Shown here: positions 173 through 36,714 of the stretch, piece after piece
How the letters are laid out: every line of letters begins with the position of its first letter
Position numbering within the stretch: the first letter of the stretch is position 1
Source of the DNA: a virus
Taxonomy: Duplodnaviria > Heunggongvirae > Uroviricota > Caudoviricetes
IMG/VR virus record: IMGVR_UViG_2547132418_000017
Direction: 5' to 3' (one strand)
Length of the DNA stretch: 36,714 bases
Program-made: the position numbers and the translations under genes
The notes under the pieces: generated by a model
What the model saw: the letters and a program-made list of their open reading frames with translations, nothing else
What the model was told of the DNA's origin: nothing
Database searches by the model: none

Positions 173-850
173 TCATGCTAATTTTTTGCTTACAGGCTTC
201 GTTTCTTGCTCCGGCGTGGCAACGGTCTGACCACCAGGCGACCCAGCCCGTGCACGAGATTCGATGCGTCGCAAAATCTCTTTGTCAGTTTCTTCATTAC
301 CAGCCAATGCCATGCAAATAGCGTCTTTAAGCGATTCCCTGATGTTTAGGCTTCTGATGGCAGTCTCTTGTTCGTCCAGGTCGCTGTCGGCCTGCATAGC
401 TTGCCTGGTGGGTTGTTGTAAGCGTTCCAAGACTCCTTTGATACCGATGTTGTAAAAAACATCAAGCAAAACATCTAAATCTTGAGCATTCATGCGCTGT
501 AATAGGAGATTTAATTCTGTTCTTTCGGTCGGATTTTGTTGCGGATTATTGTTTTCTGTAGCGGATTTTCCTGAAATTAACCACTCTACGGGAACATTGC
601 ATGCATGAGCCACCAAAGCTGCGCTGTCTATACCTGGGTAGATCTTCCCCTGCACGTACTTTCGTATTGTGGCTTCAGATAACCCACTCAGTTTTGACAG
701 TGTCATGTAATTTAATCCGCTGCCTTCCATAGCTGATTTAAGGCGCTCGCCGAAGCGGATTATATCCATAGCCTCAATAATCCGTTCTTTCTCGGTTTGC
801 TTGCTTGCGGTTTTATCTGCGTAACCGTTTCTTTTTAAAGAGTTTTTCAT
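173..850 (-). CDS. Prophage repressor, N-terminal HTH (XRE/CI-like), 225 aa
   Basis: Leftward ORF divergent from the early operon; N-terminal helix-turn-helix-like segment LSKLSGLSEATIRKYVQGK; not similar to the Mu c repressor sequence as I recall it. Confidence 0.7.
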   Translation of the reverse strand: MKNSLKRNGYADKTASKQTEKERIIEAMDIIRFGERLKSAMEGSGLNYMTLSKLSGLSEATIRKYVQGKIYPGIDSAALVAHACNVPVEWLISGKSATENNNPQQNPTERTELNLLLQRMNAQDLDVLLDVFYNIGIKGVLERLQQPTRQAMQADSDLDEQETAIRSLNIRESLKDAICMALAGNEETDKEILRRIESRARAGSPGGQTVATPEQETKPVSKKLA

Positions 851-1269: not shown

Positions 1270-3312
1270 ATGTGGATTACAGCAAAAGAGTGTGCTGGCA
1301 TTGGAGGGCTACCAACACGTGAACACAATGTCAGAGCACGTCTAGATCGTGTAATTGAGAATAAACCTGAATTAAGGCGCAAGCGTGAAGGCACAAAAGC
1401 ATTCGAGTATCACATCGACTGCCTGCCCGCTGAAGCGGAGAAAGTTTTACGTAAGCGCCTGACCCATCAGGTCCTGGAAGATACGCAACTGCCCGCCGTG
1501 GTTGAGCAGAAGGCAGTTAAAAACGTTACCGTTCGCGATGAACTGGAGGTGATGGTCAAATGCCCGGAACTGGCATTACGCGAAGTTCAGGCACTGACTG
1601 ACAAGCAAAAAGCCATCGCAGATGCGCGGATATTGCTGGCTACCGAAGTGCATAAACTGCGTGAATACGCAGGAATGTCCAGGACGGCGGCGATAAAACA
1701 CATCGTTGATGGTATCCGGCAGGAGGCTTTGCCCGAGCGTGTTATTGTGGCAGGTAATACCGCCAATGCCCGACAGGGTAAGCGAACTGGCGTCAGTACA
1801 GGGAGTTTACAGGAATGGTATTCCGCCTGGCTGATGGCGCGCGGTGATGCCAATCAGTTACTGGCGTTACTGGCTCCCGGTCATCATAAGGGGACACCGT
1901 GGGAGCAGGTCTGGTGGTTGAGCGATTTCTTAATGTTCTATCGCTCATGGAAGCGCCCGACCGTTGAATATGCGTATCGCGAGTTTTCAGCCTGGTGGCA
2001 TGAAAAACACGCGAATGATGCGGGAATGCTGGCAGCACTGCCTTCAGTTCATGCAGTAAGACGGGTGTTAAGCAGCGTCCCGGTGATTGTTAAAGAGCGT
2101 TTCCGCTCCACCGGTTCAGCCTGGCGTTCGCTCAATCCCTTTGTGCGGCGCGACTGGACATCATTACCGGTTAATGCGGTATGGGTCGGGGATGGTCACT
2201 GTATGAAAATGACCGCGTTTAACCCCCTGACCGGCAATATTTTCCGGCCAGAAGTAACGCTGGTTATGGATGCGGGACAACGCTTTGTTGTGGGCTGGTC
2301 ACTGTCCCTGTCGGAGAACGTGATAGCCGTTGCTGATGCGTTACGTTACGGCATGGCGCAGCACGGGATACCGCTGGTTTATTACTCCGATAACGGGGGC
2401 GGTGAAAAAAACCGGGTGCTTGATGCCGATATTACCGGGATTCTGCCCCGGCTGGGTGTGGAACATCACACGGGGATACCAGGTAACCCGCAGGGGCGCG
2501 GGGTGATTGAAAGGCTTAATAAGGAAATTCCCCGGGATGTGGCCCTGAGTTTCCAGACGTACTGCTCAAAGGGAGCAGACAAGGAAACCGTAATGATGCA
2601 GCAACGGATTATGCAGTCAGCCATTAAGGCCACCCACAAAGGGAAAGAACTGACAAAACGGCAGGTTAAGGCGAGGGATGAAATCCCCACCTTTGAGCAG
2701 CTGATGGCAGCTATAGAGCTGGAGGTCAGACGCTATAACAACCGACCACACAGCAGCCTTCCCCGCAAAGAGGATGGCGAATATTACAGCCCGGCAGCGT
2801 ATCGCCGGAAACTGATAAAAGAGCAGAATGTTGAAATTGATTTCCTGTCGCCGGAAGAACTGCATGAAATGTTCAGACCGGAAGTGACGCGCAAAACATT
2901 TCGCGGGGAAATTCAGTTATTCAACAATATTTATTACTCGTATGAGCTGGCCGCAGAGCACGGGAATGAAGTCAGGGTCAGTTACGATATTCATGATGCA
3001 AACAGCGTCATTGTCCGGCGGGCTGATGGCTCTTATATCTGCGATGCCATCTGGAACGGTAACAAGGTTGATGCCTTCGCTAAACCAGTTATCGAACAAA
3101 AACTGGAGAAACGCGTCAGAGGCCGCATTGCACGGGCCACGCAGAAAATCGAAGAGGCTAAACGCGAGCTTACCCCGGCTATTACGCAGAAACCTGACTT
3201 TAATTTTGGATTTGGTCTGGAGCGCCCGGAGAAAAAGGATAAAGAAGAACTTTATTTATTTGCATCTGAACGCGAACGCAATTTAAAGAAAAACGGCACA
3301 AACAACCGTTAA
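1270..3312 (+). CDS. Mu-type DDE transposase A, 680 aa
   Basis: Size and position after ner; catalytic-core-like motifs VWVGDGHCM and VYYSDNGGGE. Confidence 0.9.
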   Translation: MWITAKECAGIGGLPTREHNVRARLDRVIENKPELRRKREGTKAFEYHIDCLPAEAEKVLRKRLTHQVLEDTQLPAVVEQKAVKNVTVRDELEVMVKCPELALREVQALTDKQKAIADARILLATEVHKLREYAGMSRTAAIKHIVDGIRQEALPERVIVAGNTANARQGKRTGVSTGSLQEWYSAWLMARGDANQLLALLAPGHHKGTPWEQVWWLSDFLMFYRSWKRPTVEYAYREFSAWWHEKHANDAGMLAALPSVHAVRRVLSSVPVIVKERFRSTGSAWRSLNPFVRRDWTSLPVNAVWVGDGHCMKMTAFNPLTGNIFRPEVTLVMDAGQRFVVGWSLSLSENVIAVADALRYGMAQHGIPLVYYSDNGGGEKNRVLDADITGILPRLGVEHHTGIPGNPQGRGVIERLNKEIPRDVALSFQTYCSKGADKETVMMQQRIMQSAIKATHKGKELTKRQVKARDEIPTFEQLMAAIELEVRRYNNRPHSSLPRKEDGEYYSPAAYRRKLIKEQNVEIDFLSPEELHEMFRPEVTRKTFRGEIQLFNNIYYSYELAAEHGNEVRVSYDIHDANSVIVRRADGSYICDAIWNGNKVDAFAKPVIEQKLEKRVRGRIARATQKIEEAKRELTPAITQKPDFNFGFGLERPEKKDKEELYLFASERERNLKKNGTNNR

Positions 3313-3330: not shown

Positions 3331-4224
3331 ATGAGTTTAATTACGCAATTAAATGACGTAATGGCCCGTCGCGGCTATACGCAGACCCACGTCGCCCGTG
3401 CTATTGGTCGTAGCAGCGCCGTTATCAACCAGTATTTACAGGGTAAATATCAGGGCGATATGGCTGATATTGAAGAACGCATTTCTGCCTTCGTGACCCG
3501 TGAGCGGGAAAAGGAAAACAGCCGCCGTATTAAAGCAAAGTTTGTGACCACCGGTATGGCTGCCAAAGGACTGGAGGTGCTGGCCTACGCTCACCTGGAA
3601 TGTGAAATCTGTGTGCTGTATGGCGCGGCAGGTCTTGGCAAAACAATGATTCTGCGTGAATACGCCTCCAGAAACCGGGATGCGGTCCTGATTGAGGCTG
3701 ACCCGGGCTATACAGCCAGGACACTGCTTGAGGAGTTGTGCCGCCAGCTGGGGGTAAAGGTTCGCGGCAACATTCACGAACTGATTGATGCCTGTGTGCG
3801 CGAACTGCGTGATTCCGGTCGTCTGCTGATGGTGGACGAGGCTGAACTGCTCCCCTATCGCGCACTGGAGGTTCTGCGCCGTCTGCATGACAAAGCGGGT
3901 ATCGGGGTTGTCCTGGCGGGTATGCCTCGTCTTCTGATTAATCTCAAGGGGCGTCGTGGTGAATTTGCGCAGTTATACAGCCGCGTGGCGCTGGCGCTTA
4001 ACCTGGGCGACATGCTGGCGCAGGAAGATTTTAACCAGATAGCCACCGGGCTGATGCCGGAAGCAGCAGAACGGGAAATCAGCGAGGCGCTTTACGCACG
4101 CTCGCTGGGTAATGCCCGCCGCCTGTTCAAACTGGCGCGTGGTGTGTACCGGATTTGTGATATCAGCGATGCGCCGGTCAGTGTGCAGGCCATTGATAAA
4201 TTCGCAGAAATGTTAATTCACTGA
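3331..4224 (+). CDS. Mu-type transposition ATPase B, 297 aa
   Basis: Walker A GAAGLGKT, Walker B LLMVDEAE, N-terminal HTH-like segment; immediately downstream of transposase A. Confidence 0.9.
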   Translation: MSLITQLNDVMARRGYTQTHVARAIGRSSAVINQYLQGKYQGDMADIEERISAFVTREREKENSRRIKAKFVTTGMAAKGLEVLAYAHLECEICVLYGAAGLGKTMILREYASRNRDAVLIEADPGYTARTLLEELCRQLGVKVRGNIHELIDACVRELRDSGRLLMVDEAELLPYRALEVLRRLHDKAGIGVVLAGMPRLLINLKGRRGEFAQLYSRVALALNLGDMLAQEDFNQIATGLMPEAAEREISEALYARSLGNARRLFKLARGVYRICDISDAPVSVQAIDKFAEMLIH

Positions 4225-11275: not shown

Positions 11276-11804
11276 CATTTTTGATGAAGTCCTGGGCAAA
11301 GAAGGCGGTTACGTCAATCACCCGGACGATAAGGGCGGTCCGACCAAATGGGGCATTACGGAAAAAGTTGCCCGCGCCCACGGATACCGTGGCGATATGC
11401 GCAATTTAACCCGCGAACAGGCGCTGGACATCCTTGAAGCTGATTACTGGTATGGCCCGCGATTTGACCAGGTTGCGGCATTATCCCCTGATATTGCCGC
11501 AGAGCTGTGTGATACCGGTGTGAATATGGGGCCATCTGTGGCGTCAAGAATGCTTCAGCGCTGGCTGAATGTGTTCAATCTGCGCGGCAGGATGTATCCC
11601 GATATGGATGCAGACGGACGCATCGGGCCTCGCACCATCAGTGCATTGCGCGCCTTCCTGAATAATCGCGGTCAGGACGGTGAACGGGTGATGCTGACGG
11701 CCCTGAACTGCACGCAGGGGGACTGCTATCTGGAACTGGCAGAGAAACGCGAGGCTAACGAATCGTTTGTTTATGGCTGGCTGAAGGAGCGCGTGGCGGT
11801 ATGA
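11259..11804 (+). CDS. Endolysin, GH108-type lysozyme with peptidoglycan-binding region, 181 aa
   Basis: N-terminal GGYVNHPDDKGGPTKWGIT matches the GH108 signature as I recall it. Confidence 0.8.
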   Translation: MKSKDDIFDEVLGKEGGYVNHPDDKGGPTKWGITEKVARAHGYRGDMRNLTREQALDILEADYWYGPRFDQVAALSPDIAAELCDTGVNMGPSVASRMLQRWLNVFNLRGRMYPDMDADGRIGPRTISALRAFLNNRGQDGERVMLTALNCTQGDCYLELAEKREANESFVYGWLKERVAV

Positions 11805-11983
11805 CGCGTCAGTACTGGACCCACAGAACGCCACGTAAAGCCGCGCGCTGTGTTCTGGCCCTGTTTCTGGTGATGTTGCTTCCGGTGGGATGCACAGACA
11901 TTAACAGAGCGGGCCAGCTGTTTGACGCGGCGGCGCAGGTCTGCCGGATTATTGACGGTATCCGGCAGTGTTCGCAGAACTGA
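11801..11983 (+). CDS. Small lipoprotein-like protein (possible outer-membrane spanin), 60 aa
   Basis: ATGA overlap with endolysin stop; hydrophobic N-terminus ending LLPVGC (imperfect lipobox); no partner inner-membrane spanin identified. Confidence 0.35.
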   Translation: MTRQYWTHRTPRKAARCVLALFLVMLLPVGCTDINRAGQLFDAAAQVCRIIDGIRQCSQN

Positions 11984-12002
11984 TTTTTTGAGGTCTGACA
12001 TA

Positions 12003-12209
12003 GTGAGCATTATCAGATTTACAGAATACAGAGGTTCAGGAGGTGCTGGCGCTGTCATGGTGCTCGCTGAACGCATCACCCATTTTTACCGTCAGTACGG
12101 TACACATGATGGCACGGTCATTGAACTGGATACCGGGAAAAACGTGTATGTTCTTGAAAATCCCGACGAAGTTAAATGTCTGATTGAACAGGATCAGAAG
12201 GACACTTAA
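12003..12209 (+). CDS. Hypothetical small protein (start uncertain: GTG 12003 or ATG 12055)
   Basis: ORF between the lysis genes and small terminase; SD-like GAGG before the GTG. Confidence 0.3.
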   Translation: MSIIRFTEYRGSGGAGAVMVLAERITHFYRQYGTHDGTVIELDTGKNVYVLENPDEVKCLIEQDQKDT

Positions 12210-14405: not shown

Positions 14406-16001
14406 ATGGCACAGCTTGTTGATATTTGCGGACGCCCGCTGAAACGTGAGGCACTCAAAACCACGCAGTCGGTCAGAGTGGCGGAACGGCTGCGCATTTA
14501 TCCAGACCACCCGTCGCGTGGTCTGAACATCAGAAAACTGCCGCGCATTCTGGAAGCTGCCGAACGCGGTTATCTTCCGGCGCAGGCGATGCTGTTTGCG
14601 GATATGGAAGAGCGTGATGGTCATCTGTTCGCCGAGATGGAAAAGCGCAAAAAAGCGTTGCTGACGCTGGACTGGTCGGTGGAGCCGCCCCGCAATGCCT
14701 CGAAGGCAGAAAAGGAGCTGACTGCCGCCGTGGATGAGTGGCTGCACGGCATCCCGGACATGGAGGACATCATCCTCAACGGGATGACCAGTGTCGGTTA
14801 TGGCTTCAGTTGTCAGGAAATCAGCTGGGCGTTCGTGGATAAAACGTGGTTACCGGATGCGGTGACGCTGCGCCCGCATAACTGGTTTATTACCCTGCCG
14901 GAACACAATGACGAACTCCGGCTGGATGACGGCAACCGTGGGGAAGATGGTAAGGACGGCTCTGCACTGTGGCCGTTCGGCTGGCTGGTTCATCGTTACA
15001 ACGCCAGGTCGGGATTTCTGGGTTCATCCGGCCTGTTCCGCGTACTGGTCTGGCCGTATCTGTTTAAAAACTTCGCGCTGCGTGATATGGCGGAGTTTCT
15101 GGAGATTTACGGCCTTCCGGCGCGCATTGCGTACTATGCACAGGGCACCAGTGACGAGGACCGGGACAACATTCTTGAGGCGCTGGTCAATCTGGGTCAT
15201 GAAGCGGTGGCAGCCCTGCCGCAGGGTAACGAAATTGAGTTCAAGGAGGCCGCGTCCGGCGGACCGGAGGCGTTCATGTCGATGGTGGAATGGGCAGAGC
15301 GCACCACCTCAAAAGTGATTCTGGGCAGTACGCTGACCAGCCAGGCCGACGGTAAAACCTCCACCAACGCACTGGGTAATGTCCATAACGAGGTCAGGCA
15401 CGACATTCTGGCCGCCGATGCGCGCCAGCTGTCCGGCATGTTCAGCAGCCTGATACAGATGATGTCCAGCCTCAACGGCTGGCAGGATATCCCGCCACGC
15501 CGTCTGCCGCGACTGGTGTTTGATGTGCAGCAGGAAGCCGACATTAAGGGCGTGGCGGAAGCCGTCAGCGTGCTGGTCAACAATGTGGGAATGAAGGATA
15601 TCCCGGTGTCGTGGGTACGCAAAAAAACCGGTATCCCCACCCCGAAAGACGGCGAAGAGGTACTGGTGCCGGTGGCACAGCGTCTCCCTGTGCAGGCGGG
15701 CCTCAGCCAGTTGCGTGAGCGGCTGAATGTCGTCGCACTCAGTCAGCAGGACAACGGGGAGGACGACCCGGCACAACGCGCCATCGACCGGGCAGAACTT
15801 CCGGCAGAGGCCATCGCGCAGGGGATGAACGAACTGGTGGCCCCGCTGGTGCAGGCCATACAGGAAGGCCGGGATGCAGACGAGGCTATGAACGTACTGG
15901 CGGAAGCATGGCCGGAACTGCCGGATGAAACGCTGCGGCAGTTGCTGACACAGGCATTCTTTGTGGCGGATATCTGGGGGCGACTGAATGCCGAAAGCTG
16001 A
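14406..16001 (+). CDS. Portal protein (Mu gp29-like), 531 aa
   Basis: Size and position after large terminase; resembles the Mu-like portal family (DUF935) as recalled. Confidence 0.8.
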   Translation: MAQLVDICGRPLKREALKTTQSVRVAERLRIYPDHPSRGLNIRKLPRILEAAERGYLPAQAMLFADMEERDGHLFAEMEKRKKALLTLDWSVEPPRNASKAEKELTAAVDEWLHGIPDMEDIILNGMTSVGYGFSCQEISWAFVDKTWLPDAVTLRPHNWFITLPEHNDELRLDDGNRGEDGKDGSALWPFGWLVHRYNARSGFLGSSGLFRVLVWPYLFKNFALRDMAEFLEIYGLPARIAYYAQGTSDEDRDNILEALVNLGHEAVAALPQGNEIEFKEAASGGPEAFMSMVEWAERTTSKVILGSTLTSQADGKTSTNALGNVHNEVRHDILAADARQLSGMFSSLIQMMSSLNGWQDIPPRRLPRLVFDVQQEADIKGVAEAVSVLVNNVGMKDIPVSWVRKKTGIPTPKDGEEVLVPVAQRLPVQAGLSQLRERLNVVALSQQDNGEDDPAQRAIDRAELPAEAIAQGMNELVAPLVQAIQEGRDADEAMNVLAEAWPELPDETLRQLLTQAFFVADIWGRLNAES

Positions 16002-20690: not shown

Positions 20691-21122
20691 ATGTCTTACG
20701 CCACACCGGAACAGTTCATCAGGGCGTTCAGTGAACGCGAGGCGCGCACACTGACGGATGAAGACATGACGGGATTCATCGACGAAGAAAAGCTGGCCTC
20801 TGCGCTTGCACGTGCCAGTGCCCAGATTGATGGCTATCTGGTGGGGCGTTACCGGACCCCGTGGCCTGACAGCCCGGGGATACTGGTGGGTTACTGCTGC
20901 GATATCGCCCGTTATCACCTGGCGACCGATTACCGTATCTGCTCAGAAGAAATTCAGATGCGCTACCGGGATGCCATCCGCTTTCTGGAGAAAGTCGCGG
21001 CAGGACAAATCAACCTCGGACGGGATACGTCCGGCAGCGTGATCCAGTCATCGTCACAGGTGCGTATCCGCTCCGGCTCCCGTCAGTTCGGGCGTGAGTC
21101 CACGCGGGGAGGTGCATTCTGA
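20691..21122 (+). CDS. Mu gp36-like head completion/connector protein, 143 aa
   Basis: Position and size; resembles the Mu gp36 family as recalled. Confidence 0.5.
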   Translation: MSYATPEQFIRAFSEREARTLTDEDMTGFIDEEKLASALARASAQIDGYLVGRYRTPWPDSPGILVGYCCDIARYHLATDYRICSEEIQMRYRDAIRFLEKVAAGQINLGRDTSGSVIQSSSQVRIRSGSRQFGRESTRGGAF

Positions 21123-21175: not shown

Positions 21176-21757
21176 ATGATGCAGGATGTCCGCACCTATG
21201 CCGGTGAACTGGATGAAGACCCGGGCCGGATTGTTCGCAGCCTTCCGGCAGCCTGGGTGACGTTCGGCGGCATCGTGAAAACCGAACGCTATTCCACGTC
21301 ACGCCGGAAATACATTGCCACCGGACGCTTTGTGGTTGTGGTGGGTGATTACAACACCCGCAGCGAACAGAGCGCCAGACAGGGAGGCACTGTCCGGGAT
21401 GAAGTCGGGACAAACCAGCTTGTTGAATCCGTCCGTCGCCTGCTGACCGGTCAGGATTTGGGGCTGGAGATTGATTATTTCGAACCCGGGCGGGTCAGGA
21501 CGCTGTTTAACACCGGCGTGGCAGAGCGGGCAATGTCCGTGTTTGCCTGTGAGTTCGATACCCGCTGGGTGGAGCACGCGCTGGAGAACGGCAAATGGCC
21601 GGAGCGCGGCGCAGAAGCGGACCGTCTCTTCAACCGCTACCACGGCAGGCTGTCAGACCCTGACCCGGATTTACTGCGAATTGGTACGCAATACGGCGCA
21701 GATATCTGTGGTCTGGATGAATTAAGAGAGCAACAGCATGAACAAAATGAAGGTTAA
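21176..21757 (+). CDS. Mu gp37-like protein (N-terminus may extend upstream to a non-canonical start)
   Basis: Reading frame is open back to about 21119 with no ATG; position as Mu gp37. Confidence 0.45.
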   Translation: MMQDVRTYAGELDEDPGRIVRSLPAAWVTFGGIVKTERYSTSRRKYIATGRFVVVVGDYNTRSEQSARQGGTVRDEVGTNQLVESVRRLLTGQDLGLEIDYFEPGRVRTLFNTGVAERAMSVFACEFDTRWVEHALENGKWPERGAEADRLFNRYHGRLSDPDPDLLRIGTQYGADICGLDELREQQHEQNEG

Positions 21758-31274: not shown

Positions 31275-31847
31275 ATGAATATGGTCGATTTATTTCGCGC
31301 CATGCTGCCACCTGTCAGTTATGACCCGAACGGGAAATATATTTCCGCAGAACTGACCGCCGAGGCTGACGTCATGGAGGCCGTGAAGGCCTCAGCGGCG
31401 CGCGTTCTGGCACAAATCACCCCGTTGCAGGCATCGATGACGCTGTCCGACTGGGAGCGCGTGTACGGTGTTGTCCCCCGTGAAGGGGCAACACAACAGG
31501 AGCGGCGGCAGAATATTCTGGTAAAAATGGCAGCCACGGGCGGGCTGTCAATCCCTTACTTTAAGAGCCTTGCCGCCAGTCTGGGCTATACCATCACCAT
31601 TACGGAGCCGCGACCGTTCCGGGTGGGGATAAACCGCTGTGGTGACCATCTGCTGATACCGGAAATCCGCTGGGCGTGGCAGGTCAACGTTATCGGGACA
31701 AAAACACCGGTCTACCGGTTCAGAACGGGTGCATCGGCAACCGGTGAACCGCTGACGGCCTTCGGGGAATCCATTTTAGAAAACACGTTTAAAGACCTTA
31801 AACCGGCTTTTACAGACTGTTATTTCACGTATGAGGTGGAGGAATAA
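31275..31847 (+). CDS. Baseplate/tail protein (Mu gp48-like), 190 aa
   Basis: Position between J-like gene and tail fibre. Confidence 0.6.
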   Translation: MNMVDLFRAMLPPVSYDPNGKYISAELTAEADVMEAVKASAARVLAQITPLQASMTLSDWERVYGVVPREGATQQERRQNILVKMAATGGLSIPYFKSLAASLGYTITITEPRPFRVGINRCGDHLLIPEIRWAWQVNVIGTKTPVYRFRTGASATGEPLTAFGESILENTFKDLKPAFTDCYFTYEVEE

Positions 31848-32650
31848 TGCGGAATTTAATGCTCCCGGTGAATACGCCGGATAAGTTATTTCATGACGGT
31901 GACCCGACTCAGGGAATTGAGGGAACCATCGTTACTGCTGAATTTATGAATAATCATCAGGCGGCAACGCGTGATTTGCAGCAGGAGGTGATTAACGTCC
32001 TTAAAGAGGCCGGCGTCACCCCTGACCCGGAAAAACAAAACCAGCTGGTTGAGGCGCTGACCTCGTTTATTGGTCAGAAAGTCCCGGATGCATCACTGAC
32101 GCAAAAAGGCGTGGTGCAGCTTAACAGTGCTGTTAACAGTGAATCAGAAACAGAAGCAGCTACGCCAAAAGCGGTCAAGATTGCGATGGATAACGCAAAC
32201 GCCAGACTGGCAAAAGACCGTAACGGCGCAGACATCCCGAATAAACAATTGTTTCTGGATAACATCGGCGGTGCGCCGAAAACGCGCAAAATTAACAATA
32301 TGCCCCTGACGTCGGATATCACCATCAACAACATCGGCGGCAACGCCGGAACGGCAACCCGACTTCAGACGGCCCGCAGGATTAACAATGTGCTGTTTGA
32401 TGGCACCAGGGATATCACCATCAGTACCACCGATTCCGGCGCGGTGCGTAATTTTCAGTACACCAATGAGGTGTTTCACAACCCGGGTGGTAACGAAATC
32501 ACCTGGACGTTCCGCGCGCCTTCAGGCTGTCAGTTGTCGGGAATTTATGTCCAGGATACAGGAAGAGGTTCTGCGGATAACATCGGAGGTGTGTATTACA
32601 AACAAGCCCAGATTTATATCAATGGCGGATGGCGCGCGGTATCCGGCTAA
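31847..32650 (+). CDS. Tail fibre protein 1, 267 aa
   Basis: Contains the tail-fibre motif TQKGVVQLNSAVNSESETEAATPKAVK; followed by a tail fibre assembly gene. Confidence 0.75.
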   Translation: MRNLMLPVNTPDKLFHDGDPTQGIEGTIVTAEFMNNHQAATRDLQQEVINVLKEAGVTPDPEKQNQLVEALTSFIGQKVPDASLTQKGVVQLNSAVNSESETEAATPKAVKIAMDNANARLAKDRNGADIPNKQLFLDNIGGAPKTRKINNMPLTSDITINNIGGNAGTATRLQTARRINNVLFDGTRDITISTTDSGAVRNFQYTNEVFHNPGGNEITWTFRAPSGCQLSGIYVQDTGRGSADNIGGVYYKQAQIYINGGWRAVSG

Positions 32651-32664
32651 TTAAGGAGAAAATA

Positions 32665-33189
32665 ATGGAACTCAGAAACGTTTCGCGTTATTACCCGGAA
32701 GAGATGCCTTATGGTGAAAACATTCAGTATTTTCGCAGTGAAGACGGACAGGATTTTTATGAATCACTGGATAAATTCACGAAGAAATACAAATTGTGTA
32801 TTCACCCTGAAAGCGGCGTGATTTATTCAATGGCGGAAGACGTGTCCCGTCTTTATCCGGCTGGCTTCACCATTGTGGAAGTGGATGAACTGCCGGAAGA
32901 TTTTGGCATTGAAGCCAGCTGGTATTACAAAGACGGCGAAGTGCTGCCGGTTCCTGTTGATTACTCGCGACTGGCAGAAAAAAAACGCCAGAGCCTGCTG
33001 AATGAAGCGAAGGACATCACCTCAGACTGGAAAACCGAGCTGGAGCTGGGCACCATCAGCGACGATTACAAAGCCCGTCTTACGCAGTGGATGGCATATA
33101 TCAAAGCGGTAAAGGCGCTGGATTTAAGTCAGGTCAGTGACGAATCCTCCTTTTATTTAATTCAGTGGCCTGAAAAACCTGACGTGTAA
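32665..33189 (+). CDS. Tail fibre assembly chaperone 1 (Tfa/U-like), 174 aa
   Basis: ATG 32665 with SD AAGGAG; C-terminal LTQWMAYIKAVKALDLSQV...IQWPEKP typical of Tfa proteins. Confidence 0.8.
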   Translation: MELRNVSRYYPEEMPYGENIQYFRSEDGQDFYESLDKFTKKYKLCIHPESGVIYSMAEDVSRLYPAGFTIVEVDELPEDFGIEASWYYKDGEVLPVPVDYSRLAEKKRQSLLNEAKDITSDWKTELELGTISDDYKARLTQWMAYIKAVKALDLSQVSDESSFYLIQWPEKPDV

Positions 33190-33196
33190 AACAATA

Positions 33197-33222
33197 ACGG
33201 TCGCTGTCTGGCGACCGTTTTC
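33197..33222 (+). terminator. Rho-independent terminator between fibre module 1 and fibre module 2
   Basis: Stem ACGGTCGC / GCGACCGT (8 bp), loop TGTCTG, followed by TTTT. Confidence 0.6.
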
Positions 33223-33236
33223 AGTTCAGAGGCTTT

Positions 33237-36200
33237 ATGTCTGTATTAATTTCAGGTGCGCTGATTAATGGCGCTGGCGTTCCGATGGCGGAATGCAAAA
33301 TTTATTTAGATGCACTGGTTAATACCAGTGAAGTGGTTATTGAATCATTTGCGGTTATTGAAACCGATGCGGCGGGACAGTATGCCTTTGAAGCACAAAA
33401 AGGCAAATACACCGTACACATCAAGCAAAAGAACGGCCCTAAGTGCTGTGTGGGTGACATTTCGGTTTACGAAGATTCAAAGCCCGGCACGCTGAACGAC
33501 TTTCTGACTGCCCTTGATGAAGGCGATTTAAAGCCGGATGTAGTGAAACGCTTTGAGGAAATGGTGGCGCAGGCGCAGCAGAGCGCGGAAGCGGCAGCGA
33601 AAAGCGAACAACTGGCCGGGCAACACGTCGCTGATGCGCAGAAGATAAAGGCAGACTGTCAGACGCTGGCGGATAACGTAGCGCAGAACGCAGAAGACGT
33701 TGCTGAAGACAAAAAGCAGGTGGCGCTGCTGGCATCATCTGCCACACAGGATGCGGCCCGCGCAGAGCAGGCGGTCAAAGATGCCGACACGATAGTCCAG
33801 AAAGCGGTCGATAAACTCGGTGAAGCCGCAACGCTGAGCGGCGAGGCAAAGGCCAGTGCAGAAGCGGCAGCAAAAAGCGAGCAGGGCGCAAAACAGCACA
33901 GGGACGAGGCGCAACGGATAGTTGATGACCTGAAGGGAAGCAGTGCTTCCACGACAGAAAAAGGCCTGGTGCAACTCTGTAGTGATACGGACAACGACAG
34001 CGAAGAACTGGCAGCCACACCGAAGGCCGTCAAAACCGTCATGGACGAGACGAAAACAAAAGCGCCGCTGGACAGCCCGGCATTCACCGGCACGCCCACC
34101 ACACCAACCCCACCGGACGATGCTGCCGGTCTGGAAACAGCGAACGCGGCATTTGTCCGCAAACTGCTCGCTGCACTGGTTGACTCGTCACCGGAGGCCC
34201 TGGACACGCTGAACGAGCTGGCAGCGGCGCTGGGAAATGACCCGAATTTTGCGACGACAGTCACCAAAGCACTGGCAGGTAAACAGCCACTCAGTGACGT
34301 GTTAACCGCAATCAGTAATCTGGAAGAACGGGCAGATAATCTTCTGTGCTTTAATCAGGACGGAAATGCTTCACTGTCTCCACTGTCAGAAAAAGCCCGG
34401 TCACTGCTGGCACAGGCCACAGTGGAAGCTATGCGCAATGAGCTTGAGCTGAAAAGCGCAGCGGTAATGGATATTCAGACAGACATTCACGACAGCACGA
34501 AAGGCCGCATTGCGCTTCCCGGTGCGTATGGTTACGGAATGACGGACGCCGGAGCGCGTTCAATTATTGCCAGCGATATGGCGACTGTAGCCAGAACCGC
34601 TCACAACCTGCACCCGGGACGCTATTACACCTTTGCCACACGAACGGAAGAAACAACCGGGATAACAGAAATTATCTGGCTGGATAATGGCCGGGCCGAC
34701 AAAACCAGCCAGACAGCAACAAAGCTGGTTCTGTTTTTTGGAAAAGACGGACGGATTCTTATGACCGTTCGTGGCGATAATATCTCCGCCCCGGTCACCT
34801 GGACGAATCTGACGCCACAACTTGGCAATGCAGCACAGAAGGATGCGCAGGAGAATATTTACGACCGCACCGAAGGCCGTCTGGCGATTCCCGGCATGTT
34901 TGGATTCGGGAAAGTATTTTTCATCGGCGACAGGACCGAGTTTAAAACAGAGGCCGATTTTCTCCGCTGGGTAAAAACGGCAAATCCCGGACGCTATGCC
35001 GTTTATGCAGATACAAATGCGGTAATACAGGGCGTGCTGTTCAAGGGTACCGTTGAAATTATCTGGCCGGAACCTCAAATCAGCCATGATACGGCATATG
35101 TGGCCAAAATCATTATTTTTTACGGTATTAACGGCCATATTTATTACAATCGCTACTGGACTACCGGAGATGGTTATCTGGTTGGCTGGGAAAACCTGAA
35201 GGTTGATGAGGCTTCACTCCGGGCACTGATTGAAACCCGCGCGCCACTGAACAGCCCGGCACTGACCGGAACGCCGTCCACGCCAACACCACAGGATGAT
35301 GCAGCAGGCACTGAAATAGCCAATGCGGCGTTTGTCCGCAAACTGCTCGCCACGCTGGTTGGCTCATCACCGGAAGCCCTGGACACGCTGAACGAGCTGG
35401 CAGCGGCACTGGGCAATGACCCGAACTTTGCGACAACCGTCACTAATGCACTGGCAGGTAAACAGCCGCTTAATGACGTGTTAACGGCTGTCAGCAAGAT
35501 AACACCGGAAGAAAACACACTGCCCTATTTCAGTGCAGATGGCAGGATTTTACTGGCGCAGTTGTCAGAAAAAGCCCGCGCATTACTGGCACTGGACACA
35601 CCTGAAGCCATGCGCACGGAGCTTGAACTGAAAGCGGCTGCGACGATGGAACCCCAGAGCGATATCCGTGACCGCACACCGGGCAGACTGGCGCTGTCCG
35701 GCATGCATGGCTTTGGTCAGGCATTCAGCAGTGCCGACGCTCTGACATTTAACGGGCAGGCCGATTTTGTTGAATGGCTGAAAAAGGCCGCCCCGGGGCG
35801 TTATGCGGTCAGTATTGCGGACTCTTCCATGCTGCTGGTTGGCACCAAGAAATTTAACGGCACCATTGATGTGATGTGGTCGCCCTTTGATAACGATGAG
35901 TCGGACACAATACGAAAATTCAAAACACTGCTGTGTTTTAACCAGTATTACGAAGGTGAGCATAGTATTCATTTCCTGACTTACCGCTTTAGTGGAAACA
36001 ACTGGAATGCAACAGTAAGCCCTGTCATTTACGACGGCGATTCGCTGGCGTTCTTACTGTCCCGGACAGCAGGCTCAGGCTCATATTTCAAATACCCGGC
36101 AGTGGGTGTTCCAGTGCTGGCTGTTTATCGCGGAACAACTTTCGGGGATAAAGAAATCAATATTGGCCTGGGTGATGTGGTGCAGGGGTCACAACTGGGC

Positions 36201-36371
36201 GGAGTTAATCTTTCGTGCTTAATATCTTCTGCTGGGGTTGGCTCCTACAATTCCGCACCGAGTGCAGGAGCTACAGGGTACACTTTCCCGGGGCGTTATA
36301 TGGCGCTATCCGGGGTCAGGGACTCTAAAGGAATAACCGGTCGTATCTGCCTGTTTGTGCGCATCGAGTAA
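33237..36371 (+). CDS. Large side-tail-fibre-like protein with internally duplicated Stf-like module, 1044 aa
   Basis: Two copies of ...SPA(F/L)TGTP(T/S)TPTP.DDAAG.E.ANAAFVRKLLA...SPEALDTLNELAAALGNDPNFATTVT.ALAGKQP..., resembling the conserved region of lambda Stf; N-terminal Ala/Lys-rich region. Confidence 0.85.
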   Translation: MSVLISGALINGAGVPMAECKIYLDALVNTSEVVIESFAVIETDAAGQYAFEAQKGKYTVHIKQKNGPKCCVGDISVYEDSKPGTLNDFLTALDEGDLKPDVVKRFEEMVAQAQQSAEAAAKSEQLAGQHVADAQKIKADCQTLADNVAQNAEDVAEDKKQVALLASSATQDAARAEQAVKDADTIVQKAVDKLGEAATLSGEAKASAEAAAKSEQGAKQHRDEAQRIVDDLKGSSASTTEKGLVQLCSDTDNDSEELAATPKAVKTVMDETKTKAPLDSPAFTGTPTTPTPPDDAAGLETANAAFVRKLLAALVDSSPEALDTLNELAAALGNDPNFATTVTKALAGKQPLSDVLTAISNLEERADNLLCFNQDGNASLSPLSEKARSLLAQATVEAMRNELELKSAAVMDIQTDIHDSTKGRIALPGAYGYGMTDAGARSIIASDMATVARTAHNLHPGRYYTFATRTEETTGITEIIWLDNGRADKTSQTATKLVLFFGKDGRILMTVRGDNISAPVTWTNLTPQLGNAAQKDAQENIYDRTEGRLAIPGMFGFGKVFFIGDRTEFKTEADFLRWVKTANPGRYAVYADTNAVIQGVLFKGTVEIIWPEPQISHDTAYVAKIIIFYGINGHIYYNRYWTTGDGYLVGWENLKVDEASLRALIETRAPLNSPALTGTPSTPTPQDDAAGTEIANAAFVRKLLATLVGSSPEALDTLNELAAALGNDPNFATTVTNALAGKQPLNDVLTAVSKITPEENTLPYFSADGRILLAQLSEKARALLALDTPEAMRTELELKAAATMEPQSDIRDRTPGRLALSGMHGFGQAFSSADALTFNGQADFVEWLKKAAPGRYAVSIADSSMLLVGTKKFNGTIDVMWSPFDNDESDTIRKFKTLLCFNQYYEGEHSIHFLTYRFSGNNWNATVSPVIYDGDSLAFLLSRTAGSGSYFKYPAVGVPVLAVYRGTTFGDKEINIGLGDVVQGSQLGGVNLSCLISSAGVGSYNSAPSAGATGYTFPGRYMALSGVRDSKGITGRICLFVRIE

Positions 36372-36384
36372 CGGGGAATAAAAC

Positions 36385-36714
36385 ATGAAAATCAGAGCGG
36401 TAAAGGGCATCAGAAACGCCCATTATCTTGAAAATGGTGCGGTTGACTGCGAGGTGTTATTTGAAGGTGAAACGGAATTCGTCCCGTATACCGCCATGCA
36501 GGATGATACCGCACCGACAGGCCAGCGCATCTGGGAAGAGTTGCAGAACGGCAAATGGGGCGAAATCGCCCCTTTCACTGTCACGCCGGAACTTATCGCC
36601 GCGGCGAAGGATGCCAAAAAGCAGGAAATCGAGGCATGGCGCACAGAACAGGAAGCACTGCCGTTCACCTTTGAATGGAACGGTCGCACCTGGAACGCTG
36701 GCCCCGACTCAATG
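36385..36714 (+). CDS. Partial ORF downstream of fibre 2, probable fibre accessory/assembly protein (runs off window end)
   Basis: ATG 36385 after SD-like GGGG; open to the last base of the window (110 codons); not clearly lambda-Tfa-like. Confidence 0.4.
   Translation, partial: MKIRAVKGIRNAHYLENGAVDCEVLFEGETEFVPYTAMQDDTAPTGQRIWEELQNGKWGEIAPFTVTPELIAAAKDAKKQEIEAWRTEQEALPFTFEWNGRTWNAGPDSM

Follow-up and report, generated by a model that had tools for sequence, protein, structure and literature searches.

Two collinear tail-fiber modules with different anchor domains at the right end of a Mu-type Escherichia coli prophage

Gene content of the right-end fiber locus

The virus record IMGVR_UViG_2547132418_000017 (36,714 nucleotides, referred to here as the window) is a nearly complete Mu-type transposable prophage of Escherichia coli, and its last base is the end of its source contig (draft assembly GCA_000358145.2, contig APZN01000093.1). 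The five last genes of the window encode a homolog of the Mu baseplate protein gp48, a short tail fiber (fiber 1), a tail-fiber assembly chaperone (Tfa1), a much longer side fiber (fiber 2), and a DUF4376-type open reading frame (ORF) truncated by the contig end (Table 1). An initial annotation of the window had described the four ORFs after gp48 as two tandem modules, each composed of a fiber and a chaperone. All four were recovered in the ORF list, the first chaperone is indeed a classic Tfa, and the motif noted in both fibers, KG(V/L)VQL...AATPKAVK, is present in both and corresponds to the PF03406 repeat. The two pairs (modules 1 and 2) are also there, but the ORF downstream of the second fiber is of the DUF4376 type, not Tfa/Caudo_TAP.

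Table 1. Features of the fiber locus and of the left end of the window (nucleotide positions unless residues are given)
Feature	Position	Strand	Evidence or details
Mu gp48/YmfQ-family baseplate wedge protein	31275-31847	+	PF10076, E = 5e-31; 28% identity to Mu gp48, E = 9e-15
Fiber 1, 267 aa	31847-32650	+	PF03406, E = 4e-21
Tfa1, Caudo_TAP tail-fiber assembly chaperone, 174 aa	32665-33189	+	PF02413, E = 1e-20; PHROG 136, E = 7e-56
Inter-module hairpin and short T run	33196-33223	+	Stem 33196-33204/33211-33219, loop TGTCTG
Conserved junction and ribosome-binding site GTTCAGAGGCTTT	33224-33236	+	Directly 5′ of the fiber 2 start
Fiber 2, Stf-type side fiber, 1044 aa	33237-36371	+	PF08400, E = 3e-48; PF03406, E = 9e-16
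Fiber 2 collar domain, residues 1-93	33237-33515	+	PDB 9e7m (lambda Stf N-domain), E = 1.4e-16
Fiber 2 PF03406 motif	Residues 238-277	+	Pfam
Fiber 2 duplicated shaft unit	34062-34318 and 35241-35497	+	257 nt, 84% identical, 1179 nt apart
DUF4376 protein, 5′ part, 110/192 codons	36385-36714	+	PHROG 1141, E = 1e-51; gene cut by contig end
Repressor	173-850	-	ORF list; 225-aa repressor in Pfam of sister copies
ner-like HTH_35 gene at left end		+	Pfam of sister copies; ORFs 989-1261, 1270-3312, and 3331-4224 beside the repressor

The start codon of fiber 1 overlaps the stop codon of gp48 (TAATG). Fiber 1 is laid out like the Mu S/P2 H-type fibers, with a PF03406 constant part right after the wedge gene (residues 1 to ∼141, the anchor) followed by a variable tip (residues ∼142 to 267, ∼126 residues) that is exchangeable. 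Residues 44 to 141 are 49% identical to residues 47 to 171 of Mu S (BLASTP E = 1e-31), and the alignment stops at the annotated boundary of the Mu G segment, at S residue ∼170; residues 1 to 43 show no BLAST similarity to Mu S. Fiber 1 also matches PDB entries 5yvq/9ki1 (E = 1e-25). Within the tip, residues 209 to 267 match the short tail fiber of phiTE (PDB 9cuy, E = 2e-13), and the tip resembles the C terminus of P2 gpH and is 86% identical to tail1 of the prophage Rac-SA53. In Mu, cryo-electron microscopy places the N terminus of the fiber (gp49) on a loop of gp48, residues 133 to 155 of the latter (PMC11915804). Only the first 66 to 86 residues of fiber 1 covary with gp48 in more distant relatives, which fits an anchor role, and fiber 1 probably docks on the gp48 wedge as in Mu.

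Tfa1, preceded by a strong Shine-Dalgarno sequence (AAGGAG), scores 74.6 bits for PF02413 against a cutoff of 22.1 and is 25% identical to Mu U over its full length (E = 9e-22). In family, in size (Caudo_TAP chaperones are about 175 aa), and in its position directly 3′ of a fiber gene, it resembles known Caudo_TAP chaperones, and it is presented here as the putative cognate chaperone of the fiber 1 tip. The stretch from fiber 1 residue ∼144 through Tfa1 recurs as a cassette in other E. coli prophages at 88 to 94% nucleotide identity and starts just past the position equivalent to the Mu gix site. The full gp48-fiber 1-Tfa1 segment was found in 30 complete E. coli genomes.

Fiber 1 also contains a 17-nt direct repeat, GGATAACATCGG(C/A)GGTG, at 32257-32273 and 32575-32591, both copies of which encode DNIGG. 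The first copy coincides with the gix-equivalent position and with the edge of the cassette homology to other prophages. It may mark a recombination hotspot or simply reflect a protein motif.

Fiber 2 scores 163.7 bits for PF08400 (cutoff, 26.6) and has the organization of an Stf-type fiber, that is, an N-terminal collar domain, a linker, and a presumed long trimeric coiled coil. Its residues 2 to 191 align with residues 2 to 182 of gp40, the collar spike of the Vibrio myophage XM1 (PDB 7kjk, E = 1.9e-5). An Ala/Gln/Glu-rich stretch extends from the collar to about residue 235 and, judging from its composition and from the homology to lambda Stf and XM1 gp40, is presumed to form the coiled coil; the remainder comprises three related nodules and a distal domain. 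Among relatives, the length of fiber 2 ranges from 474 to 1044 aa, which suggests gain and loss of the duplicated unit by unequal recombination. From position 33443 onward, fiber 2 shares 88 to 89% nucleotide identity with the fibers of Rac-SA53-like prophages (E. coli W and related strains), and fiber 2-like sequence is present in 536/5426 complete E. coli genomes.

The last ORF scores 17.7 bits for PF14301, below the cutoff of 25, because it is cut by the contig end; a 192-aa sister copy (locus L004), which is 100% identical over the window's 110 residues, scores 62 bits (E = 8.5e-17). A PDB sequence search for a solved relative of the DUF4376 protein returned no match. DUF4376 proteins are listed as tail-fiber chaperones in Alteromonas phages V22 and A5 (PMC10579305), and DUF4376 tail-fiber chaperones of Alteromonas phages also appear in a second source (PMC7289586). 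The chaperone role is documented for Alteromonas phages only, and the DUF4376 protein of the window is presumed to be the chaperone of fiber 2.

One transposable element without a DNA-inversion system

The left end of the window is that of a Mu-type phage, with MuA-type and presumed MuB-type transposition genes beside the repressor/ner region. These include a 680-aa transposase with Mu-transpos_C and a weak HTH_Tnp_Mu_1 match (precomputed Pfam annotation of the sister copies), and they are followed by head, sheath, tube, tape-measure, and baseplate genes. A search for a close relative of the whole prophage, by megablast of window positions 1 to 24000 against 50,697 phage records, gave only a 167-bp match.

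The boundaries of the prophage could be located in sister copies. The assembly collection has 97 blocks indexed with the identical fiber 1 protein, and eight sister copies with identical fiber 1 (L004 to L011, from eight assemblies) adjoin eight different host genes. The eight copies are alike up to ...CGCGAAGTTACA, after which the host flanks diverge at once. Their common right terminus at the sequence level, ...AGAAAAAAACGCGAAGTTACA, lies 82 bp past the DUF4376 stop codon (at about position 15199 of these loci) and reads ...GTTACA. Five further annotated relatives add five other right flanks, giving 13 different right-hand host flanks, which follow the DUF4376 gene or, in one variant, another gene in the place of module 2. 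On the left, the prophage starts at TGTGGGGTAGTGATCAATTCTGG... (TGTGGGG...), 128 nt before window position 1 (L134 to L143, about position 2478), and adjoins ten different flanks there. In three matched left/right pairs, a target duplication is common to both ends (AATG, CAGT, and CGCT), its length reading as 4 bp if the element is taken as TG...CA. Insertion at many unrelated sites, TG...CA termini, and a short target duplication are as expected for Mu-type transposition, although the duplication differs in length from the 5 bp made by Mu itself. A 4-bp duplication is likewise given in the annotation of a Mu-like phage inserted in LC727881. The common terminus at many sites, together with the matched target duplications, places both modules in a single recently transposed element. 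Thus, both fiber modules belong to one transposable prophage.

The initial annotation had allowed that the second module might belong to an adjacent, different prophage or that fiber 1 might be a truncated remnant. The resemblance of fiber 2 to the fibers of other prophage types and the length of fiber 1, about half that of Mu S, could be read in this way, but we consider that either alternative has next to no chance of being correct. At eight sites verified by sequence, a right end of the Mu type, with repeats like transposase sites, comes after the DUF4376 gene, other right flanks occur in the five annotated relatives, and the matched ends carry the 4-bp duplication, which rules out an adjacent prophage as the source of module 2. 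Fiber 1 as a remnant is ruled out by its conservation at 267 aa, in 97 blocks with the identical protein, by its possession of an anchor, a tip, and a chaperone of its own, and by a ratio of nonsynonymous to synonymous substitution rates (dN/dS) of 0.14 to 0.16.

One other copy (L012; GCA_000357365.2, APYQ01000010.1) has an identical fiber 1, a near-identical fiber 2, and a DUF4376 variant of 194 aa. Past about position 15125 its downstream sequence is wholly different and is not a Mu-type end; it may represent recombination with the fiber genes of another prophage or an assembly join. No tRNA was found at this end.

The G segment of Mu (S-U/S′-U′, gin) occupies the same position after gp47-gp48, fiber 1 resembles the constant part of S, and Tfa1 resembles U. 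Mu and this prophage both hold two fiber/chaperone sets for host range. In Mu, however, the second set is inverted, Gin-mediated inversion at gix alternates the sets, and both variants share one anchor and one docking site, whereas the second set here is collinear, has its own unrelated anchor domain, and is found without gin, gix, com, or mom. Everything that Mu has to the right of U (Mu 35092-36602, L017) gives way here to fiber 2 and the DUF4376 gene. The G segment of SfMu is normal.

The initial annotation had reported neither an invertase nor an inverted fiber copy in the window, and this was borne out. No homolog of Mu Gin was detected by tblastn in the window or in the sister loci that reach the prophage end; there were zero matches to the gix/hix-type consensus TTNTCNNAAACCNNGGTTTNNGANAA with up to 3 mismatches; and the longest inverted repeat was 25 nt at 76% complementarity, compatible with chance. 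In the sister copies, no invertase, com, or mom lies between the DUF4376 gene and the prophage end. Extension to the right, where a gin-type invertase and inverted repeats might have been encountered, thus met the end of the prophage and no gin. Gin/Cin/Pin-type segments combine an adjacent serine invertase with inverted crossover sites around an inverted gene set, and neither feature was found; both modules are on the plus strand, with no inverted second fiber/chaperone set. There is no DNA-inversion system here.

We therefore consider it highly improbable that the locus is an either/or switch, as in Mu, P1, and e14, in which one module per cell would be expressed via site-specific recombination. 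The homology of fiber 1 to Mu S up to the gix crossover position and the 17-nt direct repeat GGATAACATCGGNGGTG, present at the gix-equivalent position and again 318 nt downstream, would suit such a switch, but the modules share a strand, the window and the DUF4376-to-end stretch of the sister copies hold no Gin/Pin/Hin homolog, and the lack of gix consensus and of any meaningful inverted repeat rules out the inversion model. The e14 prophage of E. coli K-12 (ymfQ-stfP-tfaP/tfaE-stfE/pinE) has a YmfQ/gp48-family wedge gene followed by a short fiber and a Tfa, and it has an invertible P segment with the Pin invertase. By comparison, the window has neither an invertible segment nor a Pin-type invertase.

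Variation, selection, and the inter-module hairpin

Relatives were gathered via the gp48 protein and then sorted by what follows gp48. The order fiber 1-Tfa-hairpin-collar fiber-DUF4376 is kept in nearly all relatives with gp48 identity of at least 83% and enough downstream sequence, the exceptions being L056, L059, and L145. Within this clade, the anchors are conserved (fiber 1 residues 1 to 111 at 73 to 100% identity, collar residues 1 to 133 at 87 to 100%), while the distal parts and the chaperones differ: fiber 1 ranges from 267 to 344 aa with two unrelated types of Tfa cassette, fiber 2 varies in length as described above, and the DUF4376 proteins are 64 to 100% identical. Which module is the variable one, a question raised by the initial annotation, accordingly has the answer that both are, outside their anchors. 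They vary in the same manner, which is the usual signature of working fibers that fit their own virion while changing receptors. Pairwise dN/dS values of 0.03 to 0.37 for gp47, gp48, fiber 1, Tfa1, the collar region (0.15 to 0.24), and DUF4376 (0.15 to 0.30) indicate purifying selection.

The collar fiber is missing from a sister clade whose gp48 is 78% identical (Buttiauxella, Intestinirhabdus, and IMG/VR contigs), so module 2 was gained at the base of the clade and not recently. The collar core (about residues 1 to 75) is clade specific, being only ∼56 to 58% identical to the version in the phages phiP27 and Rac-SA53, whereas the three lineages (Mu-like, phiP27, and Rac-SA53) hardly differ in the linker and at the beginning of the coiled coil. 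The layout and the clade-specific core are kept in nearly all sufficiently long relatives with gp48 of at least 83% identity, and the earlier suggestion that the second module is a recent acquisition is not upheld for the module as a whole. Only the distal parts have been exchanged recently.

Some copies have further peculiarities. In L056, L059, and L145 (E. coli 48956, NZ_CM135148.1), the gp48 frame runs on into PLTIN-type repeats for ∼145 codons; the L145 annotation calls this a pseudogene. In L145, the gene that takes the place of module 2 is followed within about 110 bp by the host gene rhsC. In L146 (E. coli RSHH22, NZ_CP096902.1), an extra DUF1353 gene (PHROG 1158, "tail assembly chaperone") at 11660-12043 separates the DUF4376 gene from the host gene fadR. 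In L060 (IMGVR_UViG_2531839662_000040), about 3.9 to 7.5 kb past gp48, a second set comes after the collar fiber and DUF4376, with a fiber of 358 aa, a Tfa of 181 aa, an ORF of 491 aa, and one more ORF. Its fiber and Tfa are similar to L54 and L55 of phiP27, and in size its ORFs correspond to L54 to L57; the set may be what is left of an adjacent phiP27-like phage, or else modules three and four. The RM9088 prophage (L001) has an IS66-family element just upstream of the tape-measure gene, and that of TUM9812 (L144) has partial holin and lysis genes directly upstream of the sheath-domain gene; both prophages look degraded.

Between the modules, the sequence at 33196-33219 can form a hairpin with a 9-bp stem (6 GC pairs) and a 6-nt loop, at -16.5 kcal/mol (z = -3.25). 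Stem substitutions in relatives preserve the pairing (G-U-compatible). In the sub-clade that carries the other Tfa cassette, this position is taken by a different hairpin of canonical form, AGCCGCCCGCAGGCGGCTTTTTATC (z = -3.71 for the 54-nt stretch holding it), which directly precedes the shared junction TTCAGAGGYTYTATG. Because two unrelated stem-loops occupy this position in two sub-clades, the position appears to have a function. The stretch ...TTCAGAGGYTYTATGTCT is the sole intergenic sequence that the two sub-clades share, the sequences upstream of it being unrelated. No hairpin is present in phiP27 and Rac-SA53, where the gap between Tfa and the second fiber is just 23 nt.

A conserved promoter belonging to module 2 was considered and rejected as unlikely, because the coding sequences upstream of the hairpin are unrelated between the sub-clades and because a scan of the plus strand from 29733 to the window end, one that Mu-type late promoters, not being sigma-70-like, would escape, detected no sigma-70-like site. 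Read-through from the late baseplate operon would be the simplest model for the expression of module 2, and the hairpin is a putative leaky intrinsic terminator, attenuator, and/or 3′ stabilizer of the upstream message.

A proposed two-slot host-recognition locus and its relatives

Alongside the gene identities, the single mobile element, the lack of an inversion system, the conserved anchors with mosaic distal exchange, and the purifying selection observed above, we infer co-display of the two fibers on one virion, a separate docking site for fiber 2, read-through at the hairpin, and different receptors. The locus would be a host-recognition region at the right end of a Mu-type prophage, with two slots read in the same direction. 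In slot 1, the Mu S-like N-terminal part of the short fiber would be docked on the gp48 baseplate wedge, and the tip and its Caudo_TAP chaperone would form an exchangeable cassette. In slot 2, the long lambda Stf-type fiber would be attached by its own collar domain at a different site, probably the neck or the tail terminator as in XM1, and folded by the DUF4376 chaperone. The late baseplate operon would transcribe both pairs, and the hairpin, as a leaky terminator or 3′ stabilizer, would result in less module 2 product. The virion would thereby show two receptor specificities simultaneously, not alternately by DNA inversion as in Mu. We regard this account, a baseplate fiber and a collar-anchored side fiber displayed at once with a leaky terminator between their genes, as probable, though by no means secure.

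The collar domain has two solved relatives. Fiber 2 resembles Stf of Ur-lambda in its residues 1 to 93 (StfN), in the flexible linker and long helical region, and in the shared PF03406 motif. Lambda differs as a siphophage, with its collar on the exposed gpV/gpM tube junction, and in having a Tfa (Caudo_TAP) chaperone where DUF4376 is found here. In a contractile tail, the tube surface corresponding to lambda's collar site is covered by the sheath. Twelve StfN domains form the Ur-lambda collar round the gpV/gpM junction and bear four accessory side fibers that speed adsorption (PMC12617516). In XM1, the N-terminal domain of gp40 binds the neck (PMC10457771), an example of six trimers held at the neck in this way in a phage with a contractile tail. 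XM1 gp40 (PDB 7KJK) resembles fiber 2 in its immunoglobulin-like N-terminal domain, long coiled coil, and receptor-binding part, but its distal part is a tailspike, not a fiber, and the sequence similarity is weak. Ring assembly of PF08400-type N-domains has been demonstrated for lambda and XM1 only. The window also encodes homologs of Mu gp36 (20691-21122) and of the Mu tail terminator gp37 (21176-21757, 193 aa), and in the latter the Pfam model spans residues 2 to 131 only; the ∼60 C-terminal residues outside the model are a candidate partner if fiber 2 makes a neck collar.

The four-gene layout is not new as such, having already been annotated in phiP27, Rac-SA53, and Rac-SA53-like prophages. 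The Stx2e phage phiP27 (NC_003356, L53 to L57) has the same order at its right end, namely, the wedge, a 332-aa fiber, a Caudo_TAP Tfa, a 490-aa PF08400 fiber, DUF4376, and the attachment site. Its collar domain is 70% and its DUF4376 protein 78% identical to those of the window. It differs in being an integrase/cos phage that is not transposable, in tail proteins that are only 23 to 38% identical, and in having no hairpin. The second fiber of phiP27 is, to our knowledge, functionally uncharacterized. Rac-SA53 and the Rac-SA53-like prophages (E. coli W, LY180, and "DH5alpha" CP026085) have the same four-gene tandem, tail1 to tail4, ending at attB/uspF. Apart from the fiber 1 tip noted above, the identities to Rac-SA53 are 66% for Tfa, 69% for fiber 2 over its full length, and 79% for DUF4376, but the remaining virion genes are without detectable similarity, there is no hairpin, the early region is lambdoid, and integration is site specific.

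Several observations weigh against simultaneous display from two functional slots. The collars of phiP27 and Rac-SA53 are nearly identical (∼95% in alignment A1, read without rows L058 and L064), yet the head, neck, sheath, and baseplate proteins of the two phages are mutually without detectable similarity; because one collar type sits on phages with unrelated tails, specific docking to a tail protein is unproven. Fiber 2 is frameshifted in RM9088, is a partial gene in TUM9812, and apparently stops early at 994 aa in L005 (likely a premature stop), fiber 1 and Tfa1 being intact in all three, and slot 2 of L056, L059, and L145 holds a 351-aa protein (PHROG 8291, no Pfam match) instead of the collar fiber and DUF4376. 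Disrupted or replaced in several copies, module 2 is dispensable for prophage persistence. As for the intrinsic terminator that had been annotated between the modules, the hairpin stands, but a terminator scan passed it on the minus strand only, and on the plus strand it has a poor U-tract, UUUU (the stem includes two of these) and then CAGUU. A Mu-type late promoter would have gone unseen in the promoter scan.

Much of this would suit the alternative that module 2 is a passenger, an Stf/DUF4376 pair acquired from other prophages downstream of the original operon terminator, poorly expressed or silent, excluded from the virion, and at most a recombination reservoir. The hairpin upstream of module 2 and the lack of a detectable promoter, the 88 to 89% identity of the distal 3.3 kb to the fibers of Rac-SA53-like prophages, the occurrence of the same collar type in phages with unrelated tails, the disrupted fiber 2 genes (that of L005 probably so), the other gene in slot 2 of three relatives, and the absence of the collar fiber from the sister clade all point in that direction. 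Purifying selection on the collar region and DUF4376 argues otherwise, as does the clade-specific collar core, which is conserved with swaps confined to the distal parts, the pattern of a fiber fitting its own virion. The ribosome-binding-site junction is also conserved, and an intact 1044-aa ORF is retained in recently transposed copies at eight sites. We judge the passenger alternative unlikely.

The same collar in unrelated phages bears on where fiber 2 might dock; a generic ring round the tail or neck cylinder and attachment to fiber 1 are both possible. In a broader reading, the Stf collar fiber and its DUF4376 partner could be a portable, self-docking accessory fiber for contractile tails without mutual sequence similarity (Mu-like, phiP27-like, and Rac-SA53-like), probably as a neck or tail collar; in this prophage, permanent dual display would have replaced inversion, and the leaky terminator would set the dosage. 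This broader proposal is tentative, and we hold it to be possible but doubtful. With attachment to fiber 1 or another product of the cassette, the fiber would be branched, which would account for the use of a single collar type on unrelated tails. The collar and the distal two-thirds of fiber 1 (74% identity) are common to phiP27 and Rac-SA53, two phages with no detectable tail, neck, or baseplate similarity, and the collar fiber always comes after a fiber 1 and Tfa pair in all three lineages. However, both solved relatives of the collar domain bind tail or neck rings and not another fiber, the fiber 1 of the window has only the tip and the PF03406 motif in common with the fiber 1 of the other lineages, and lambda has the collar domain without a fiber 1 equivalent. 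A branched fiber therefore seems improbable to us.

Phages with several receptor-binding proteins are well known and common, and for that reason the locus is less a surprise than a modest lead and a helpful annotation. The arrangement of fiber, Tfa, collar fiber, and DUF4376 is a widespread four-gene layout in E. coli prophages with baseplate-J-type tails, and the locus raises the structural question of where an Stf collar domain docks on a sheathed tail. For engineering, it offers clear module borders at which receptor-binding parts could be swapped, after the PF03406 motif/gix-equivalent position in fiber 1 and after the collar and linker in fiber 2. If both slots function as proposed, a Mu-type transposable phage can handle host range without a G-inversion switch, via two collinear modules with different anchor domains.

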